Shown here: positions 1-10,151 of the stretch, piece after piece
How the letters are laid out: every line of letters begins with the position of its first letter
Position numbering within the stretch: the stretch's first letter is position 1
DNA from: a virus
Lineage: Duplodnaviria; Heunggongvirae; Uroviricota; Caudoviricetes
Virus record (IMG/VR): IMGVR_UViG_2534681762_000008
Direction: 5' to 3' (one strand)
Length of the DNA stretch: 10,151 nucleotides
Made by a program: the position numbers and the translations under genes
Notes under the pieces: model-generated
Seen by the model: the letters and a program-made list of their open reading frames with translations, nothing else
The model's database searches: none
What the model was told of the DNA's origin: nothing

Positions 1-1254
1 ATGCTGGAACAAATGGGCATTGCCGCGAAGCAAGCCTCGTATAAATTAGCGCAACTCTCCAGCCGCGAAAAAAATCGCGTGCTGGAAAAAATCGCCGATG
101 AACTGGAAGCACAAAGCGAAATCATCCTCAACGCTAACGCCCAGGATGTTGCTGACGCGCGTGCCAATGGCCTTGGCGAAGCGATGCTTGACCGTCTGGC
201 ACTGACGCCCGCACGGCTGAAAGGCATTGCCGATGATGTGCGCCAGGTGTGTAACCTCGCCGATCCGGTGGGGCAGGTAATCGATGGCAGCGTACTGGAC
301 AGCGGCCTGCGTCTTGAGCGTCGTCGCGTACCGCTGGGGGTTATTGGCGTGATTTATGAAGCGCGCCCGAACGTGACGGTTGATGTCGCTTCGCTGTGCC
401 TGAAAACCGGTAACGCAGTGATTCTGCGTGGCGGTAAAGAAACCTGTCGCACTAACGCGGCAACGGTGGCGGTGATTCAGGACGCCCTGAAATCCTGTGG
501 CTTACCGGTGGGTGCCGTGCAGGCGATTGATAATCCTGACCGTGCGCTGGTCAGTGAAATGCTGCGTATGGATAAATACATCGACATGCTGATCCCGCGT
601 GGTGGCGCTGGTTTGCATAAACTGTGCCGCGAACAGTCGACGATCCCGGTGATCACAGGTGGTATAGGCGTATGCCATATTTATGTTGATGAAAGTGTAG
701 AGATTGCTGAAGCATTAAAAGTGATCGTCAACGCGAAAACTCAGCGTCCGAGCACATGTAATACGGTAGAAACGTTGCTGGTGAATAAAAACATCGCCGA
801 TAGCTTCCTGCCCGCATTAAGCAAACAAATGGAGGAAAGCGGCGTGGCATTACACGCAGATGCAGCTGCGCTGGCGCAGTTGCAGACAGGCCCCGCGAAG
901 GTGGTGGCTGTTAAAGCGGAAGAGTATGACGATGAGTTTCTGTCATTAGATTTGAACGTCAAAATCGTCAGTGATCTTGACGATGCCATCGCCCATATTC
1001 GTGAACACGGCACACAACACTCCGATGCGATCCTGACCCGCGATATGCGCAACGCCCAGCGTTTTGTTAACGAAGTGGATTCGTCCGCTGTTTACGTTAA
1101 CGCCTCTACGCGTTTTACCGACGGCGGCCAGTTTGGACTAGGTGCGGAAGTGGCGGTAAGCACACAAAAACTCCACGCGCGTGGCCCAATGGGGCTGGAA
1201 GCACTGACCACTTACAAGTGGATCGGTATTGGTGATTACACCATTCGTGCGTAA
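1..1254 (+). CDS. proA: Gamma-glutamyl phosphate reductase (glutamate-5-semialdehyde dehydrogenase), complete 417 aa
   Basis: Full-length ORF whose translation ([38 protein letters not shown]...) I recognise as E. coli-type ProA; ATG at window position 1, TAA at 1252-1254; proA-thrW adjacency is the known chromosomal arrangement. Confidence 0.96.
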
Positions 1255-1299
1255 ATAAAACCGGGTGATGCAAAAGTAGCCATTTGATTCACAAGGCCA

Positions 1300-1328
1300 T
1301 TGACGCATCGCCCGGTTAGTTTTAACCT
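1300..1328 (+). promoter_or_regulatory. Candidate sigma70 promoter for thrW (-35 TTGACG 1300-1305, 17-bp spacer, -10 TAACCT 1323-1328)
   Basis: Hexamers read directly from sequence about 40 bp upstream of the tRNA 5' end; the -10 is a weak match, so this is a positional guess only. Confidence 0.3.
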
Positions 1329-1368
1329 TGTCCACCGTGATTCACGTTCGTGAACATGTCCTTTCAGG

Positions 1369-1444
1369 GCCGATATAGCTCAGTTGGTAGAGCAGCGCAT
1401 TCGTAATGCGAAGGTCGTAGGTTCGACTCCTATTATCGGCACCA
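1369..1444 (+). tRNA. thrW: tRNA-Thr, anticodon CGT, 76 nt including encoded CCA
   Basis: Sequence GCCGATATAGCTCAGTTGGTAGAGCAGCGCATTCGTAATGCGAAGGTCGTAGGTTCGACTCCTATTATCGGCACCA folds as a cloverleaf: 7-bp acceptor stem GCCGATA/TATCGGC, anticodon stem GCGCA/TGCGC with loop TTCGTAA, T-arm GGTTCGACTCC. Confidence 0.95.
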
Positions 1445-1458
1445 TTTAAATCAATAAG

Positions 1459-2622
1459 TTACACATCATTAGTACCTTCCTTATTTTTTGACTGGGACAA
1501 ATTTGGGACCGATGGGTTTAGGATCGAGTCTATTTGCCGTGCGTGTTCGGTAAGGTGATTAGGTGCAAGGTGAGCATATCGACGAACCATTTCGATAGAC
1601 TCCCAGCCTCCCATTTCCTGTAACACTGACAACGGGACTCCGGCTTGAACCAGCCAACTTGCCCAGGTGTGTCTCAAGTCGTGAAATCTGAAATCATCAA
1701 TACCAGCCCGTCTCAGCGCCGCTTTCCAGGCTGTGTTTGCGTCATACCGCATCTTCCTGACTGTTGGCGCTTTCGTTCCGTCTGGTTTGGTACAGCTTTC
1801 CTTGTACACAAATACCCAACGGTGATGATTCCCGATTTGTTTTTTCAATACGCGACATGCAGTATCATTCAGCGCAACGCCAATTGCGCGGTTTGATTTA
1901 CTCTCTTCCGGGTTTATCCATGCCACCCGGCGCTGCATATCTATTTGTTGCCATTCAAGGTTGATGATGTTCGAGCGTCTTAGGCCTGTTGCCAGTGCAA
2001 ATTCAACAACAGACTTTAATGGCTCCGGACATTCATCAATCAGCCTTTGTGCTTCATGGGGCTCCAGCCAGCGGATCCGTTTATTCTTTGGTTGGGGCAC
2101 TTTAATAATTGGTGCCTTATCCAGCATTTTCCATTCACGCTCTGCGGCTCTTAGTAGGGCCTTTATAAATGAAAGATGCGTAGCCTTCGTTGCAACGGAC
2201 GCTGGTTTTGGCGTGTATTCTGGAACAGGTTTCCCTTTTTTTCTGCATGCTTCTGCCCTGAGTTTCCAGTTTTCCTCATGACGCCGGTTCGTCATTTTCT
2301 GCATTGCTGAATAAATTTTTGATTCAGTAATGTCTCTTAGTTGCATTCCTGCGAAATGTTGAAGCCAGAATCCGATCCGGCTTTTGTCATCGTCCAGTGA
2401 TTTTTTATGTGCTTTCTCTTCAAGCCACCTGACACACGCTTCCTCGAACGTTATATCAGGTATTTCACCAAGTTTGCTGACCCGCCATGCTTCAGCCTTT
2501 AGCTTGTCATGGAGTTCTGTCGCCTGCCTTTTGTCCTTTGTTCCAAGAGACTGTTTAAATCTTTTACCGTTCGGCAATGTGAAACTGGCGTACCATATTT
2601 CACCTCTGCGGAAGAGTGACAT
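1459..2622 (-). CDS. int: Phage tyrosine integrase (P22/SfV-like site-specific recombinase), 387 aa
   Basis: 387-aa ORF starting 15 bp from the tRNA 3' end and reading away from it; N-terminus [22 protein letters not shown] and the C-terminal HDLRHTWAS...VRRYAHL motifs (catalytic R-H-R-Y family) match P22-type integrases from memory; 5' end overlaps xis by 124 nt. Confidence 0.93.
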
Positions 2623-2849
2623 TTTCTTTCCTCTGTTATGCCATCACCCGCGCTCACCTGGACAGTATGCAGCGGAGACTGAAGAGCCGCAATGCAGGCT
2701 TGTCGTGTTGTGAGGTAAGGAGATTTATTCTTAGTGGGATCTTTGCGTGTTGCCTGAAGACGCCCTGTGCGTATCCAGTTAATGGCAGTCGGTCTGGATA
2801 TCTTGAGAAAATGACAGGCCTCATCGAGTGTGAGGCTGTATGGCTCCAT
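2499..2849 (-). CDS. xis: Excisionase (Xis), 116 aa from the internal ATG at 2847-2849
   Basis: Small ORF immediately upstream of and overlapping int; [32 protein letters not shown] resembles P22-type Xis as I recall it. I prefer the internal ATG because it overlaps the stop of the upstream gene in a TAATG junction; the track's longer 144-aa form would overlap that gene. Confidence 0.8.
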
Positions 2850-3154
2850 TATTTCACCTCTTGCTGTGACATTGTTGAAAAATGGATACCAGCTCGTTGC
2901 TGCCAGACGATCCAACCGAGAGTCATATCCCATGCCATGTATTCGTTATCGCCGTTTTTTGCTCTCCGACGATCTACTAAGTCACCGAAACGCTTTTCCA
3001 TGAATAATTCATAAGCTTCGCGTTCATCTGGTTCTACTTCCAGAGATAGGAGTGCGATTTCATAAGCACGGCGCTCAATATCGTCTCGCACGTCAAGGCT
3101 GCTGATACGCTCTTTAATTTCTTTAATCAGTTCTTTGTCGGTAAAAGTGGTCAT
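2849..3154 (-). CDS. Hypothetical phage early-left protein, 101 aa, acidic, no family recognised
   Basis: ORF bounded by TAATG start/stop overlaps on both sides (2847-2851 and 3152-3156), so it is translationally coupled within the leftward operon; family not recognised. Confidence 0.7.
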   Translation of the reverse strand: MTTFTDKELIKEIKERISSLDVRDDIERRAYEIALLSLEVEPDEREAYELFMEKRFGDLVDRRRAKNGDNEYMAWDMTLGWIVWQQRAGIHFSTMSQQEVK

Positions 3155-3516
3155 TATGCTCCAGCCTCCGGTGCTTTTGGCATTACTGCCCAGTGAGTGA
3201 TATTGACGTTTTCAAGGTCCCCGACCTGAAATGTCCATTGCCATTCTCCGGTTTCTTTTTGTCCCCAGGTGTACCAGAGAGAACGCCAGCCAATTAGCCA
3301 GCCTTCTCCGTTAGCATCGAATAACAAAACACTTTCATTTGCTGGTGGCAGTTCAGTTGACACTGGTATTACTTTGTTTTCCTGTGCTGCACATTTAGCT
3401 TCAAGCGCATCGAATTTACGCACTAGGTATTCAGCATCTGTTTTATTTACTTTCAGATCTCGCGGTACACATCTCCCACGAAGAAACCCTTCCATTTCGA
3501 AAACATTCATGCGCAT
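3154..3516 (-). CDS. DUF551-like phage protein, 120 aa
   Basis: C-terminal half (ELPP...VLLFD...GW...W...W...THWAVMPKAPE) resembles the DUF551 signature common in enterobacterial prophage early regions; GGAG lies 8 nt upstream of the ATG; start overlaps the HD gene stop by 10 nt. Confidence 0.75.
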   Translation of the reverse strand: MRMNVFEMEGFLRGRCVPRDLKVNKTDAEYLVRKFDALEAKCAAQENKVIPVSTELPPANESVLLFDANGEGWLIGWRSLWYTWGQKETGEWQWTFQVGDLENVNITHWAVMPKAPEAGA

Positions 3517-4043
3517 TTGCGTAACTCCGATAACTCGTTAAAGCGTTCCATAAACATCCCGTAGACATGGCCCGGTGCCAGTGGAATCACGTTGAACATC
3601 TCTGTTGCCGGGATACCTTCCAGTACAGGCCAGAAAGAGCCATCATCAAGCCCGAGATCGCGGCGTTCGGTTGCCAGCATGATGAGATCGGCATATTTCA
3701 CGGGCGTACTCATAACTGGGGGTAACCCGTATTTCTCACGGATTACGGCGTCTATTTTTTCTTCCATTTGTTTATAGTCAGGAAGAAGGCGTTTCAGTGG
3801 TGCGGGAATGTCCTGGCAATACGCTTCTGTTGCATCATGCATTAACGCTTCAAAAGCAAATTCCTGCGGCACCAGCTGGCTGCAAAGAACCGCATGTTGG
3901 GCGACGCTGTAGAAGTGCGAAAGATGACCGGCAAAGCGACAGATATTTGAAAGGGAAACCGCGATATCGTTAATATCGATGTCGTCTTTATTTATCCTGT
4001 CATAATAAAAATGCTTCCCGGAAAAAGTTTTAATAAATGACAT
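3507..4043 (-). CDS. HD-domain phosphohydrolase, YfbR-like 5'-deoxynucleotidase family, 178 aa from ATG 4041-4043
   Basis: Contains H...HD metal-binding motifs (RFAGHLSH ... ALMHDATEAY) and a later acidic residue in the pattern of small HD nucleotidases; GGAG (complement of 4050-4053) sits 6 nt upstream of the ATG. The track's longer form begins at a GTG at 4068-4070 with no SD. Confidence 0.82.
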   Translation of the reverse strand: MSFIKTFSGKHFYYDRINKDDIDINDIAVSLSNICRFAGHLSHFYSVAQHAVLCSQLVPQEFAFEALMHDATEAYCQDIPAPLKRLLPDYKQMEEKIDAVIREKYGLPPVMSTPVKYADLIMLATERRDLGLDDGSFWPVLEGIPATEMFNVIPLAPGHVYGMFMERFNELSELRKCA

Positions 4044-4199
4044 TTTGTTCTCCACGTATATGCGCTGCACCGCGCTGAATTCTGGTAAAAAAAATCCCTC
4101 ACCATCCGGCGATTATTGAGTAAATTACGTTTCCATAAATGCCCTCGCAGGGGCATTTGCAGTAATGAAATCAGGCAATGAAAGGGTAATGACTCCAAC

Positions 4200-4703
4200 T
4201 TATTGATAGTGTTTTATGTTCAGATAATGCCCGATGACTTTGTCATGCAGCTCCACCGATTTTGAGAACGACAGCGACTTCCGTCCCAGCCGTGCCAGGT
4301 GCTGCCTCAGATTCAGGTTATGCCGCTCAATTCGCTGCGTATATCGCTTGCTGATTACGTGCAGCTTTCCCTTCAGGCGGGATTCATACAGCGGCCAGCC
4401 ATCCGTCATCCATATCACCACGTCAAAGGGTGACAGCAGGCTCATAAGACGCCCCAGCGTCGCCATAGTGCGTTCACCGAATACGTGCGCAACAACCGTC
4501 TTCCGGAGACTGTCATACGCGTAAAACAGCCAGCGCTGGCGCGATTTAGCCCCGACATAGCCCCACTGTTCGTCCATTTCCGCGCAGACGATGACGTCAC
4601 TGCCCGGCTGTATGCGCGAGGTTACCGACTGCGGCCTGAGTTTTTTAAGTGACGTAAAATCGTGTTGAGGCCAACGCCCATAATGCGGGCAGTTGCCCGG
4701 CAT
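4200..4703 (-). CDS. insB: IS1 InsB' (catalytic part of transposase, made as InsAB' by -1 frameshift)
   Basis: Translation ...[64 protein letters not shown]... matches IS1 InsB; it overlaps insA in the -1 frame. Confidence 0.92.
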
Positions 4704-4897
4704 CCAACGCCATTCATGGCCATATCAATGATTTTCTGGTGCGTACCGGGTTGAGAAGCGGTGTAAGTGAACTGCAGTTGCCATGTTTTACGGCAGTGAG
4801 AGCAGAGATAGCGCTGATGTCCGGCGGTGCTTTTGCCGTTACGCACCACCCCGTCAGTAGCTGAACAGGAGGGACAGCTGATAGAAACAGAAGCCAC
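4622..4897 (-). CDS. insA: IS1 InsA (transposition inhibitor / N-terminal part of InsAB' transposase), 91 aa
   Basis: Translation [42 protein letters not shown]... matches IS1 InsA; coordinates fall at the expected offsets inside the 768-bp element. Confidence 0.93.
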
Positions 4898-4952
4898 TGG
4901 AGCACCTCAAAAACACCATCATACACTAAATCAGTAAGTTGACAGCATCACC

Positions 4953-5813
4953 CAGATACAGAAGGTTCAGGTTGATACAAATAATAACCTGAACAGCATG
5001 TGGGCTGTGAAGCTGCAGCAGATGCAGGACGGACGCCTTTATATCGCGGGTATTGGTGCCGGTATTGAGAATACCCCTGACGGCATGCAGAGTCAGGTGC
5101 TGCTGGCGGCGGACAGGATTGCGATGGTTAATCCTGCGAATGGCAACACAAAACCGATGTTTGTTGGTCAGGGCGATCAGATATTCATGAACGACGTGTT
5201 CCTGAAACGCCTGACGGCTCCCACCATTACCAGCGGTGGAAATCCGCCGGCATTTTCCCTGACACCAGACGGAAAGCTGACCGCTAAAAATGCGGATATC
5301 AGCGGTAATGTGAATGCAAATTCAGGGACGCTCAACAATGTCACGATTAATGAAAACTGTCAGATTAAGGGGAAACTGTCAGCCAATCAGATTGAAGGCG
5401 ATATTGTCAAAACGGTCAGCAAGTCTTTCCCCCGCACGAACAGTTATGCCAGTGGCACCATCACGGTAAGAATCAGTGATGATCAGAAATTTGACCGGCA
5501 GGTCATGATACCGCCAGTGTTATTCCGCGGTGGTAAGCATGAGAATTTCAACAGTAATAACCAACAGTCATACTGGTATTCAACCTGCCGGTTAAGAGTG
5601 ACCCGCAATGGTCAGGAGATTTTTAATCAGTCCACGACGGATGCTCAGGGCGTATTTTCCTCAGTTATAGATATGCCTGCCGGACAGGGGACGCTGACAC
5701 TGACATTCACCGTATCTTCATCAGGAGCGAATAACTGGACACCAACAACCAGTATCAGCGATCTGCTGGTTGTGGTGATGAAAAAATCCACAGCAGGTAT
5801 CAGTATCAGCTGA
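4953..5813 (+). pseudogene. J: 3' fragment (about 287 codons) of a lambda-J-like tail tip / host-specificity gene, truncated by IS1
   Basis: The frame is open from the first base after IS1 ([23 protein letters not shown]...) to TGA 5811-5813. The sequence resembles the C-terminal receptor-binding region of lambda J as I recall it. Everything upstream of this segment is missing and there is no SD before the internal Met at 4998. Confidence 0.85.
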
Positions 5814-5831
5814 ATTTTATAACCCAGAACG

Positions 5832-5856
5832 GGCGTCAGAAATGACGCCTTTTTTA
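5832..5856 (+). terminator. Rho-independent terminator after the J fragment
   Basis: Hairpin GGCGTCA-GAAA-TGACGCC (5832-5849) followed by a T-run (5850-5855). Confidence 0.65.
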
Positions 5857-5879
5857 TTGCAGAAAAGCGAGAGGTAATT

Positions 5880-6479
5880 ATGCGTAAACTTTATGCCGCC
5901 ATTTTGTCCGCAGCCATTTGTCTGGCCGTATCCGGTGCGCCTGCATGGGCGTCTGAACATCAGTCCACGCTGAGCGCGGGGTATCTTCATGCCCGGACGA
6001 ACGTTCCCGGCAGTGATGATCTGAACGGGATTAACGTGAAATACCGTTATGAGTTTACGGACACACTGGGGATGGTGACGTCGTTCAGCTATGCAGGAGA
6101 CAAGAATCGCCAGATTACCCGTTACAGCGATACCCGCTGGCATGAAGATTCCGTTCGTAACCGCTGGTTCAGCGTAATGGCGGGGCCGTCTGTGCGCGTG
6201 AATGAATGGTTCAGCGCGTATGCGATGGCGGGTGTGGCTTACAGCCGTGTGTCGACTTTCTCCGGGGATTATCTCCGCGTAACTGACAACAAGGGGAAAA
6301 AGCACGATGTGCTGACCGGAAGTGATGACGGTCGCCACAGCAACACGTCTCTGGCGTGGGGAGCTGGCGTGCAGTTTAACCCGACCGAATCCGTGGCCAT
6401 TGATGTCGCTTATGAAGGCTCCGGCAGTGGTGACTGGCGCACTGACGGGTTCATCGTGGGTGTTGGTTATAAATTCTGA
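5880..6479 (+). CDS. lom: Lom outer-membrane protein (Ail/Lom/PagC beta-barrel family), 199 aa with signal peptide
   Basis: Translation [24 protein letters not shown]... has an N-terminal signal peptide and a C-terminal ...GVGYKF typical of Ail/Lom barrels; SD GAGG 5871-5874; position between J and stf matches lambda. Confidence 0.92.
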
Positions 6480-6505
6480 TTAGCCAGGTAACACAGTGTT
6501 ATGAC

Positions 6506-6532
6506 AGCCCGCCGGTTCAGGCGGGCTTTTTT
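6506..6532 (+). terminator. Rho-independent terminator after lom
   Basis: Hairpin AGCCCGCC-GGTTCA-GGCGGGCT (6506-6527) running into TTTTTT (6527-6532). Confidence 0.7.
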
Positions 6533-6543
6533 GTGGGGTGAAT

Positions 6544-9500
6544 ATGGCAGTAAAAATTTCAGGTGTACTGAAAGACGGCACAGGAAAACCGGTACAGAAC
6601 TGCACAATCCAGCTGAAAGCAAAACGTAACAGTACCACGGTGGTGGTGAACACGCTGGCATCTGAAAATCCGGATGAAGCCGGGCGTTACAGTATGGACG
6701 TTGAGTACGGTCAGTACAGCGTTATTCTGTTGGTGGAAGGATTCCCGCCGTCACATGCCGGGACCATCACAGTGTATGAAGATTCCCGACCCGGTACGCT
6801 GAATGATTTTCTCGGTGCCATGACGGAGGATGATGCCCGTCCGGAGGCACTGCGCCGTTTTGAGCTGATGGTGGAAGAGGTGGCGCGTAACGCGTCCGTG
6901 GTGGCACAGAACACGGCAGCCGCGAAGAAGTCAGCCAGTGATGCCAGCACATCAGCCCGTGAGGCGGCAACCCATGCGACTGATGCTGCAGGCTCAGCAC
7001 GCGCAGCCAGCACGTCAGCCGGACAGGCCGCGTCGTCGGCTCAGTCAGCGACTTCCAGCGCAGGAACGGCATCAACAAAGGCTACTGAAGCATCAAAAAG
7101 TGCTGCCGCTGCAGAGTCCTCAAAAAGCGCGGCAGCTACCAGTGCCAGTGCCGCGAAAACGTCAGAAACGAATGCTGCAGCGTCACAACAATCAGCAGCC
7201 ACTTCTGCATCCACCGCAACTACGAAAGCGTCAGAAGCTGCCACCTCAGCCCGGGATGCGGCGGCTTCAAAAGAGGCGGCAAAATCATCAGAAACGAACG
7301 CATCCTCGAGCGCCAGTAGCGCAGCTTCCTCGGCAACAGCGGCAGGAAATTCCGCGAAGGCGGCAAAAACGTCAGAGACGAACGCCAGGTCTTCTGAAAC
7401 GGCAGCGGGACAGAGCGCCTCGGCTGCGGCAGGCTCAAAAACAGCGGCTGCGTCGTCTGCCAGTGCAGCGTCAACAAGTGCCGGGCAGGCCTCAGCCAGT
7501 GCCACCGCCGCCGGAAAATCGGCAGAAAGCGCCGCATCGTCTGCTTCAACAGCCACAACGAAGGCTGGCGAAGCCACTGAACAGGCCAGCGCAGCAGCGA
7601 GGTCTGCTTCCGCAGCGAAGACATCCGAAACGAACGCGAAAGCGTCGGAAACCAGCGCAGAATCCTCAAAAACGGCTGCCGCATCGTCAGCCAGTTCGGC
7701 GGCGTCATCGGCATCATCTGCGTCTGCTTCAAAAGATGAGGCGACCAGACAGGCGTCAGCAGCGAAGGGTAGCGCCACGACGGCATCCACGAAGGCGACA
7801 GAGGCAGCTGGCAGTGCGACGGCGGCAGCTCAGAGCAAAAGTACGGCGGAATCTGCAGCAACGCGCGCTGAGACAGCGGCAAAACGGGCAGAGGATATTG
7901 CATCCGCCGTGGCGCTTGAGGATGCGAGCACGACGAAAAAGGGGATAGTACAGCTCAGCAGTGCGACCAACAGTACGTCTGAAACGCTGGCGGCAACGCC
8001 AAAAGCCGTTAAGGCCGCGTATGACCTGGCTAACGGGAAATACACCGCACAGGATGCAACGACAGCACAGAAAGGGATAATCCAGCTAAGCAGCGCGACC
8101 AACAGCACGTCTGAAACGCTGGCGGCAACGCCAAAGGCAGTAAAAGCAGCCAATGACAATGCTGAGAAACGTCTGCAGAAAGATCAGAACGGTGCGGATA
8201 TCCCTGGCAAAGACACCTTTACGAAAAATATTGGTGCCTGCCGTGCCTTCGGTGGGTCAGTAAGCACAACAACAGGAAACTGGACGACTGCACAGTTTAT
8301 CGAGTGGCTGGATTCTCAGGGAGCATTTAACCATCCATACTGGATGTGCAAGGGTTCCTGGTCTTATGGCAATAATAAAATCATTACTGATACTGGCTGC
8401 GGTAATATTCATCTCGCCGGAGCTGTCATTGAAGTAATGGGGATAAAGTCAGCGATGACGATCCGCATTACCACACCGACCACCTCCACTGGTGGTGGAA
8501 CAACTAACGCCCAGTTTACCTATATTAATCACGGAACAGATTATTCACCTGGCTGGCGAAGGGACTATAACTCCAGAAATAAGCCAACGGCATCAGAGAT
8601 CGGGGCGTTACCGTCAGGTGGAACAGCAGTATCATCAGTTAATCTGTCTTCAAAAGGTCGGGTAACCGCGCTGACAGACAATACACAGGGGGCAACAGGT
8701 CTTGAGTTATACGAGGTGTATAACAACGGATATCCAACAGCGTATGGAAATATCATTCACCTGAAAGGGATGACAGCCGTTGGCGAAGGTGAGTTACTCA
8801 TCGGCTGGAGTGGTACAAGCGGTGCTCATGCTCCGGCATTTATTCGTTCACGACGGGATACGACCGACGCAAACTGGTCGCCGTGGGCGCAGCTTTACAC
8901 CTCGGCTCATCCTCCTGCAGAGTTTTATCCAGTCGGTGCACCAATCCCGTGGCCATCAGATACCGTTCCGTCTGGTTATGCCCTGATGCAGGGGCAGACT
9001 TTTGACAAATCTGCTTACCCGAAACTTGCAGCGGCTTATCCGTCAGGCGTGATCCCTGATATGCGTGGCTGGACGATTAAGGGCAAGCCCGCCAGTGGTC
9101 GTGCCGTATTGTCTCAGGAACAGGACGGCATTAAATCGCACACCCACAGCGCCAGCGCATCCAGTACGGATTTGGGGACGAAAACCACATCGTCGTTTGA
9201 TTACGGCACTAAATCCACGAATAACACTGGTGCGCATACCCATAGTGTTAGCGGTACGGCTGCTTCAGCCGGTGCACATACCCATTCGATGACATTTGTT
9301 TCAGGTGGTTCCAGTGGTGCTCCGGGAAGTGGATCACCTGATTATTCTAAATACAGTGTTAACACTTCTTCTGCAGGCGCTCATACGCACTCTGTATCGG
9401 GTACTGCTGCAAGCGCAGGTGCACACGCACATACTGTCGGTATTGGTGCTCATACGCACTCCGTTGCGATTGGTTCACATGGACATACCATCACCGTTAA

Positions 9501-9567
9501 CGCTGCTGGTAACGCGGAAAACACCGTCAAAAACATCGCATTTAACTATATTGTGAGGCTTGCATAA
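6544..9567 (+). CDS. stf: Side tail fiber protein (Stf), mosaic, 1007 aa from ATG 6544
   Basis: N-terminus [26 protein letters not shown] matches lambda Stf; long Ala/Ser-rich shaft; conserved [24 protein letters not shown] motif; C-terminus with GAHTHS/HxH repeats and ...[14 protein letters not shown] 6544 is preceded by GGGG 6535-6538 and is preferred over the in-frame GTG at 6538 used by the track. Stop TAA 9565-9567. Confidence 0.9.
7936..8151 (+). repeat. Two copies of an 84-bp segment encoding the conserved tail-fiber motif KGI(V/I)[23 protein letters not shown] (7936-8019 and 8068-8151), 48 bp apart
   Basis: Read directly from the sequence: the two copies are near-identical at the protein level, with several synonymous and few nonsynonymous differences in the DNA. 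Confidence 0.85.
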
Positions 9568-10151
9568 TGGCATTCAGAATGAGTGAACAACCACGGACCA
9601 TAAAAATTTATAATCTGCTGGCCGGAACTAATGAATTTATTGGTGAAGGTGACGCATATATTCCGCCTCATACAGGTCTGCCAGCAAACAGTACCGATAT
9701 TGCACCGCCAGATATTCCGGCTGGCTTTGTGGCTGTTTTCAACAGTGATGAGGCATCGTGGCATCTCGTTGAAGATCATCGGGGAAAAACCGTCTATGAC
9801 GTGGCTTCCGGCGACGCGTTATTTATTTCTGAACTTGGCTCGTTACCGGAAAATGTCACCTGGTTATCGCCGGAAGGGGAATATCAGAAGTGGAACGGCA
9901 CAGCCTGGGTGAAGGATACGGAAGCAGAAAAACTGTTCCGGATCCGGGAGGCGGAAGAAACAAAAAACAGCCTGATGCAGGTAGCCAGTGAGCATATAGC
10001 GCCACTTCAGGATGCTGTAGATCTGGAGATCGCAACGGAGGAAGAAACCTCATTGCTGGAAGCCTGGAAAAAATATCGGGTGTTGCTTAACCGTGTTAAT
10101 ACAACAACTGCACCGGATATTGAATGGCCAACAGTACCCATTATCGAATAG
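9567..10151 (+). CDS. tfa: Tail fiber assembly protein (Tfa), 194 aa
   Basis: ATG 9567-9569 overlaps the stf stop (TAATG); translation [44 protein letters not shown]... matches the lambda Tfa family; TAG at 10149-10151 is the last codon of the window. Confidence 0.9.

Follow-up and report, generated by a model that had tools for sequence, protein, structure and literature searches.

The stretch of DNA analysed here (hereafter the window; 10,151 nt) is 100% identical to part of contig AQEJ01000008.1 (733 kb; GCA_000355115.2) of the ETEC strain E. coli ThroopD. ThroopD was isolated in Dallas in 1975 and sequenced as a draft (PMC4309559), using a HiSeq library with 100-nt reads and 300-bp inserts that was assembled with Celera Assembler (PMC4462620). 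The window consists of a left arm, which includes the chromosomal thrW locus and the int-side early genes of a lambdoid prophage, one copy of IS1, and a right arm made up of tail genes (Table 1).

Table 1. Features of the 10,151-nt window and the evidence on which each was assigned
Feature	Position	Strand	Evidence and remarks
proA	1..1254	+	417-aa ORF; annotated as proA in the 99.9% identical locus of L3452210II; chromosomal flank of the thrW locus
thrW, tRNA-Thr(CGT)	1369..1444	+	ARAGORN; prophage integration site
attL core of thrW prophage	1399..1462	.	47-64 nt repeated at 100% at the right end of thrW prophages (L3452210II, strain 190, L007/L008)
Tyrosine integrase	1459..2622	-	PF00589, E 3e-48
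HTH_17 excisionase-like gene	2499..2933	-	PF12728; annotated as helix-turn-helix protein in relatives
yfdT-like gene	2849..3154	-	Annotation of colinear 99.9% identical locus
DUF551 / yfdS-like phage gene	3154..3516	-	PF04448; annotation of colinear relative
yfdR-like 5'-deoxynucleotidase	3507..4043	-	Annotation of relative; weak PF12917 match; last complete early-left gene before IS1
yfdQ, last 14 nt	4171..4184	-	Aligned to intact yfdQ of L026 and L003; left break point
IS1, complete	4185..4952	-	768 bp; IRR end left, IRL end right
insB'	4200-4703	-	167 aa; full-length Pfam match PF03400
insA	4622-4897	-	91 aa; full-length Pfam matches PF03811 and PF12759
J, 3' part (J'), codons 875-1160	4953..5813	+	Aligned to intact J in L005/L006; PF09327, PF12421; right break point
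lom	5880..6479	+	PF06316, E 2.5e-120
stf, side tail fibre	6544..9567	+	1007 aa; allele otherwise only in thrW-locus prophages
196-nt stretch	9487..9682	.	Mismatch positions; identical in thrW-type and att-lambda-type tail modules; spans stf stop and tfa start
tfa	9567..10151	+	PF02413; att-lambda-prophage allele, 11 aa off the allele accompanying this stf elsewhere

The left arm, 1-4184, matches a draft assembly (L026) at 100% and strain L3452210II at 99.9%, and at least 80% of it is present in 795 complete E. coli genomes. Both an attL core and an integrase gene lie in the window, and the corresponding attR is seen in relatives. Beyond the point where the left arm ends, the relatives continue with yfdQ, yfdP, repressor/cro, replication genes, Q, lysis and morphogenesis genes. 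What is left of yfdQ in the window amounts to 11 coding nt and the stop, that is, the codons F-I-A with the stop codon and 2 nt of the preceding codon. In the usual lambdoid layout, transcription of the early-left genes starts on the repressor side and runs leftward to int, and hence the piece retained here is the promoter-distal end of the early-left operon. The earlier note had described this flank as promoter-proximal, which has to be reversed: it is the promoter-distal, int-proximal end, with IS1 sitting in the last 14 nt of yfdQ. At the other end of this arm, the excisionase-like ORF and the longest integrase ORF, at its 5' end, share 124 nt (2499-2622); a shorter integrase is annotated in RefSeq relatives (equivalent to 1459-2577), with which an overlap persists.

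Judging from its sequence, the IS1 copy is apparently intact. It has the length of the element and imperfect terminal repeats of ~23 bp starting with GGTAATGAC and GGTGATGCT, it begins with GGTAATGACTCC... at the left and finishes with ...GACAGCATCACC at the right, and its terminal inverted repeats, GGTAATGACTCCAACTTATTGAT (4185-4207) and the reverse complement of GGTGATGCTGTCAACTTACTGAT (4930-4952), match at 17 of 23 positions. Annotated IS1 copies are 98-99.7% identical to it, and the A6C motif (AAAAAAC) of the -1 frameshift between insA and insB' is present at 4640-4646, IS1 position 307. The 9-mers on its two sides, CAATGAAAG (4176-4184) and CAGATACAG (4953-4961), differ as the earlier note had written, agreeing at five of nine positions, and no direct repeat of 6-14 nt abuts the IS1 ends when the boundaries are shifted by up to 3 nt each. 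As a positive control, the repeat test was applied to complete genomes in which IS1 is simply inserted into the same gene, and it returned perfect duplications of 9 bp there (strain 2-1, AGCCATTTC; ECL27977, GTCATTGTC; L001 and L068); for the two IS1 copies that border rearrangements (L002 and L069) it returned none. Of the two marks of a simple insertion, i.e. an 8-9-bp duplication and flanks that are contiguous in IS-free genomes, neither was found: the two IS1 flanks are adjacent in 0 of 5,426 complete E. coli genomes, and in intact relatives the left flank continues into yfdQ and the right flank into J codons 1-874. Alignment of both flanks to intact thrW prophages, a check that the note had proposed, placed the break points in the same orientation and 32,228 nt (strain 190) or 33,053 nt (WY517-2) apart, so that the missing interval maps to 32.2-33.1 kb and the claimed non-contiguity of the flanks is borne out.

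On the right side of IS1, window position 4953 corresponds to nucleotide 2623 of the 3,483-nt J gene, i.e. codon 875 of 1160. The break is thus within a J-like tail gene, as had been noted, but three quarters along it rather than in its middle. The Pfam tail-tip fibre domain starts at this break, and J' retains the tail-tip fibre and C-terminal receptor-binding domains. The segment from lom into tfa (5814-9682) shows 1 mismatch in 3,869 nt relative to two prophages located upstream of a thrW att core (L007/L008), whose right end is 99.6-99.8% identical to that of the thrW prophage in the complete genome of WY517-2. These L007-type thrW prophages lack the first 201 nt of J' (4953-5153), which are 98.5% identical to the thrW prophage of strain 190 and 100% identical to an att-lambda prophage (TUM1881), with which the whole of J' (4953-5813) shares all but 1 nt. 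Apart from these 201 nt, which are not in L007/L008, both arms up to about 9487 match thrW prophages, in the same orientation.

The type of the sequence changes further to the right, away from IS1. In a segment-wise comparison, the differences between the window and att-lambda-type references end at 9486 and those from the thrW-type reference begin at 9683. Only over the 196 nt between do the two types agree fully, and the switch from thrW-type to att-lambda-type must fall within 9487-9682. Five att-lambda references have no mismatch to the window from 9487 to 10087, and the match runs on beyond it into the GGDEF-ybhB-bioA region. The allele associations follow the same line. The exact 1007-aa Stf was found on 19 contigs and is paired with the L007 Tfa allele in 9 of the 9 others with a readable tfa, and the window's exact Tfa occurs in 1,627 blocks of the collection and, among the matches listed, stands in 10 of 10 beside GGDEF-ybhB-bioA with other Stf alleles. 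The pairing of this Stf with this Tfa was seen in the ThroopD contig only. Since the 196-nt exact repeat is longer than the 100-nt reads and the Stf/Tfa pairing is unique to ThroopD, the contig appears to be chimeric at 9487-9682.

The further course of the source contig points in the same direction. Downstream of tfa, AQEJ01000008.1 carries a GGDEF gene, the lambda att core (GCTTTTTTATACTAACTTGAGCG), ybhB, bioA, bioBFCD and uvrB, and no second thrW att core is found within the 10 kb after the window, attR(lambda) being there instead. As assembled, the contig thus joins the thrW locus to the att-lambda/bio locus, and because it reaches attR(lambda) and bio it does not represent one prophage. 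On the K-12 map thrW and att-lambda/bio are separated by ~0.54 Mb that contain numerous essential genes. Both loci are in the reference orientation in the contig (proBA +, bioA -, bioBFCD-uvrB +), which means that a single recombination would amount to a lethal deletion of ~0.54 Mb with its essential genes; the same would hold for a real join at stf/tfa, and the switch was for this reason taken as an assembly chimera. Neither a thrW-to-bio adjacency nor the junction in the window occurs in any of the 5,426 complete E. coli genomes. On these allele associations and this argument from viability, AQEJ01000008.1 is probably chimeric at 9487-9682, switching there to a second, att-lambda-integrated prophage, although a natural stf/tfa recombinant unique to ThroopD may be an alternative. 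Most probably, as far as the sequence comparisons can tell, the tfa at the end of the window belongs to the att-lambda prophage and everything to the left of about 9487 to one thrW prophage remnant. Our first reading, drawn from the course of the contig from thrW to attR(lambda) and bio, had been that IS1 itself joins two prophages, and it was downgraded when the segment-wise comparison placed the switch at 9487-9682. The likeness to repeat-induced chimeric contigs known from short-read drafts, here an inferred one, lies in two loci being joined through a shared stretch (196 nt) exceeding the read length (100 nt), in an implied genome without essential genes and in an allele pairing unique to the assembly.

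Adjacent deletion and recombination between IS copies are classical for IS1. With moderate confidence we lean towards the reading that positions 1 to ~9500 are one decayed thrW prophage from which ~32-33 kb were lost via IS1, the contig being chimeric at stf/tfa. In this scenario IS1 would have landed in a single lambdoid prophage at thrW, after which the DNA from the 3' tip of yfdQ to J codon 875, ~32-33 kb, would have been lost. Either an adjacent deletion through intramolecular transposition of IS1 or recombination of two directly oriented copies could account for this loss, which would have removed the immunity, replication, lysis, head and most tail genes and left one IS1 with unrelated 9-mers on its two sides. 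The resulting remnant, which has attL, int, the xis-like gene, yfdT, the yfdS-like gene and yfdR to the left of IS1 and J', lom and stf to its right, would be non-inducible; separately, the draft contig would cross to the second, att-lambda-integrated prophage inside 9487-9682. We infer this order of events, as we would any choice between the two IS1 routes, which are indistinguishable from one genome. The deletion or inter-IS1 recombination that the earlier note had proposed therefore stands as the most economical reading of the IS1 junction, both arms being of thrW type up to ~9487, but the contig beyond that point is probably an att-lambda prophage and has to be set apart from it. More generally, IS copies without a target-site duplication are ascribed to adjacent deletion or inter-IS recombination (PMC11708052, which reviews and quantifies such events), and the present case resembles those events in its intact IS, the missing duplication, the distant flanks of the same ancestral orientation and the single IS kept, with no mechanistic difference visible here.

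Support for the two junctions at the level of reads is unequal. A Logan contig (L032; SRR447115 and two other runs) corresponds to window 1433-4210, including 26 nt of IS1. That it reaches 26 nt into IS1 and stops there indicates that the left junction exists in reads and that IS1 is repeated in the genome, and that its other end stops 30 nt into the thrW att core indicates a second copy of the thrW att elsewhere in the genome. One would expect such a copy were the thrW remnant to have its true right end on another contig. The right junction, from IS1 to J', and the path through the element are present in the ThroopD contig AQEJ01000008.1 only. When the right junction was sought with the 271-aa and 286-aa J' products and Stf, the sample that yields the left junction contributed no Logan contig, a result that carries no information given how often tail genes recur in prophages, and Lom is too common to help find this junction. 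As to the earlier note's point that the junction might be an assembly artifact, the left side is found in Logan reads and the right side in the ThroopD assembly. Exact DNA scans of species-representative genomes and JGI metagenomes returned no match to the right junction, the left junction or a hypothetical junction of IS1 with the 5' part of J.

The most serious competitor, an unlikely one, is that two IS1 copies were collapsed: one would lie in the thrW prophage, on the yfdR side, and one in J of an att-lambda prophage, and the assembler would have joined the two at IS1. The two 9-mers would then come from different IS1 copies, and the whole right arm, from J' to tfa, would be located at att-lambda. 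The library could have produced such an error, since with 100-nt reads and 300-bp inserts no read pair spans the 768-bp IS1; the repetition of IS1 in the genome, with the Logan contig ending inside the element, and the lack of independent support for the right junction fit as well. So does the near identity of J' to the att-lambda prophage of TUM1881, and the order J'-lom-stf-tfa-GGDEF-ybhB-bioA is colinear in 204 complete genomes. However, an att-lambda prophage would be needed with an Stf allele otherwise confined to thrW, plus an Stf/Tfa pairing seen nowhere else, and the switch at 9487-9682 already accounts for the proA-bio adjacency without a second error. A yfdQ body beside an IS1 end is, moreover, not on record, which means that even with two collapsed copies the IS1 at thrW would be one without a target-site duplication.

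We regard it as improbable, and considerably more so than a collapse of IS1 copies, that the contig is correct as deposited. The thrW remnant and the att-lambda prophage would then have been fused in vivo, via IS1 or via the 196-nt repeat, with relocation of ~0.54 Mb; the route could be an excised circle reintegrated through another repeat, or two successive inversions. The contig was deposited without gaps and matches the window at 100%, the second thrW att core in the genome of the Logan sample is also required by a fusion, and 196 nt of identity suffices for RecA recombination. Yet at least two rare events would be needed, a single recombination being the deletion of the essential-gene region described above; the adjacency is found in none of the 5,426 complete genomes, and data of this type (short reads, 300-bp inserts) cannot support the join. 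If the contig were right, it would represent a prophage- or IS-driven translocation on the megabase scale in a natural E. coli. Finally, the possibility that IS1 inserted simply and that point mutations later erased its 9-bp duplication, for which the agreement of the 9-mers at five positions might be adduced, is hardly credible and was excluded by comparing the flanks with intact relatives, since they are unrelated genes (the 3' tip of yfdQ and J codon 875) lying 32-33 kb apart, adjacent in no complete genome and each continued differently in intact sequences.

For the preferred reading, a thrW prophage shortened via IS1, products of the reciprocal event can be predicted. The note had suggested looking for a second IS1 copy with matching half-site flanks, and at the level of exact predicted proteins none was found: the predicted reciprocal products (YfdQ ending in FIG, with variants for 7-10-bp duplications and cut contigs) are absent from a collection of 15 billion proteins, which does hold the native YfdQ allele and other ThroopD proteins, and no J(1-877)-IS1 fusion protein, built on two J alleles, was found in this collection either. 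The lack of any record of a yfdQ body next to the IRL end speaks against both a simple insertion in yfdQ and models in which the deleted DNA stays beside IS1. In the collections searched, no close relative of ThroopD shows an IS1 at one of these two sites flanked by a duplicated CAATGAAAG or CAGATACAG. A match to a YfdQ cut at 272 aa was considered as a reciprocal product and rejected, as contigs commonly end there, at a mosaic boundary, in unrelated samples other than ThroopD. Seventeen contigs from unrelated samples (L053-L062) end at yfdQ codon 272, a few nt from the IS1 site. Contig ends at the equivalent of ~4178-4210 suggest that co-resident yfdQ-family prophages have a homology boundary at the 3' end of yfdQ, where assemblers break.

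IS1-bounded prophage decay is already known; the present locus is a textbook case of it, with no new mechanism and ordinary behaviour of the element. Comparable events are found in two complete genomes, E-ge-1 (NZ_CP158503) and VTB97420v (NZ_CP178690), in which IS1 likewise lies in or beside yfdQ without a duplication. In E-ge-1 the IS1 junction connects the int/early-left arm to tail-fibre remnants, much as here, and in VTB97420v it connects that arm directly to the repressor region. They differ from the ThroopD locus in that their break points are independent, that the integrase of E-ge-1 is a different one, and that they are finished genomes of long-read level whereas ThroopD is a short-read draft. 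Cryptic lambdoid remnants are also familiar from K-12, namely CPS-53/KpLE1 with yfdP-yfdT, Rac, Qin and DLP12. These resemble the window in the yfdQ/R/S/T family and in being non-inducible sets of int, a few early genes and tail-fibre genes; they differ in the integration site, and at thrW the IS, probably the cause of the break, still marks it. Across complete genomes, IS1 is found within ~500 bp of the equivalent site in eight, at several different positions. Of the four full IS1 copies examined near yfdQ, two are simple insertions and two border deletions, and in one further complete genome a 159-bp stump of IS1 adjoins a deletion that extends to fbpC (these cases being L001, L002 and L067-L069). 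The pattern suggests that IS1 favours this region, the AT-rich end of the early-left operon.

In practice, the case serves as a warning. A probable mis-join of two prophages lies in the same 10-kb window of ThroopD, a widely used ETEC reference draft, and synteny, prophage boundaries or "hybrid prophage" calls taken from this contig would mislead. In a short-read draft, the absence of a target-site duplication is uninterpretable unless the origin of each flank is checked.

The break site in J recurs elsewhere. In three assemblies (L018 at 9954, L021 and L022) a deletion ends 2-3 nt from the IS1 site, at the equivalent of 4951-4956; in the L018-type deletion, J is fused to a truncated lipoprotein gene that neighbours bor (...GTGTATCCAC|GATACAGAAGG). 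CAGATACAG is also where four unrelated contigs (L063-L066, position 1-3) begin, either exactly or 2 nt ahead of it. Located 12 nt downstream of the J break is an inverted repeat of 9 nt without mismatches (4965-4973 / 4986-4994). This recurrence may reflect a hot spot, a module boundary or coincidence. The L018-type junction was considered as an ancestor or derivative of the IS1 junction and rejected, neither sequence being a suffix of the other.

Two further observations concern the right ends of these elements. In the thrW prophages with the same Stf (L007/L008 14618-17632; L070 47634-48402), rclA lies between two inverted IS1 copies without duplications, and the thrW att core (L007/L008 19163-19209) then precedes a second integrase, of P4 type. 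The right end of L007/L008 is a tandem array at thrW that has also been reshaped by IS1. In the att-lambda prophages, a MASE4-GGDEF diguanylate cyclase gene (L009 13954-14997 vs L005 10273-11604) is located between tfa and attR(lambda), a position that identifies it as prophage cargo, found in more than 200 genomes; the ThroopD protein is shortened, with 347 aa as compared to 443 aa.
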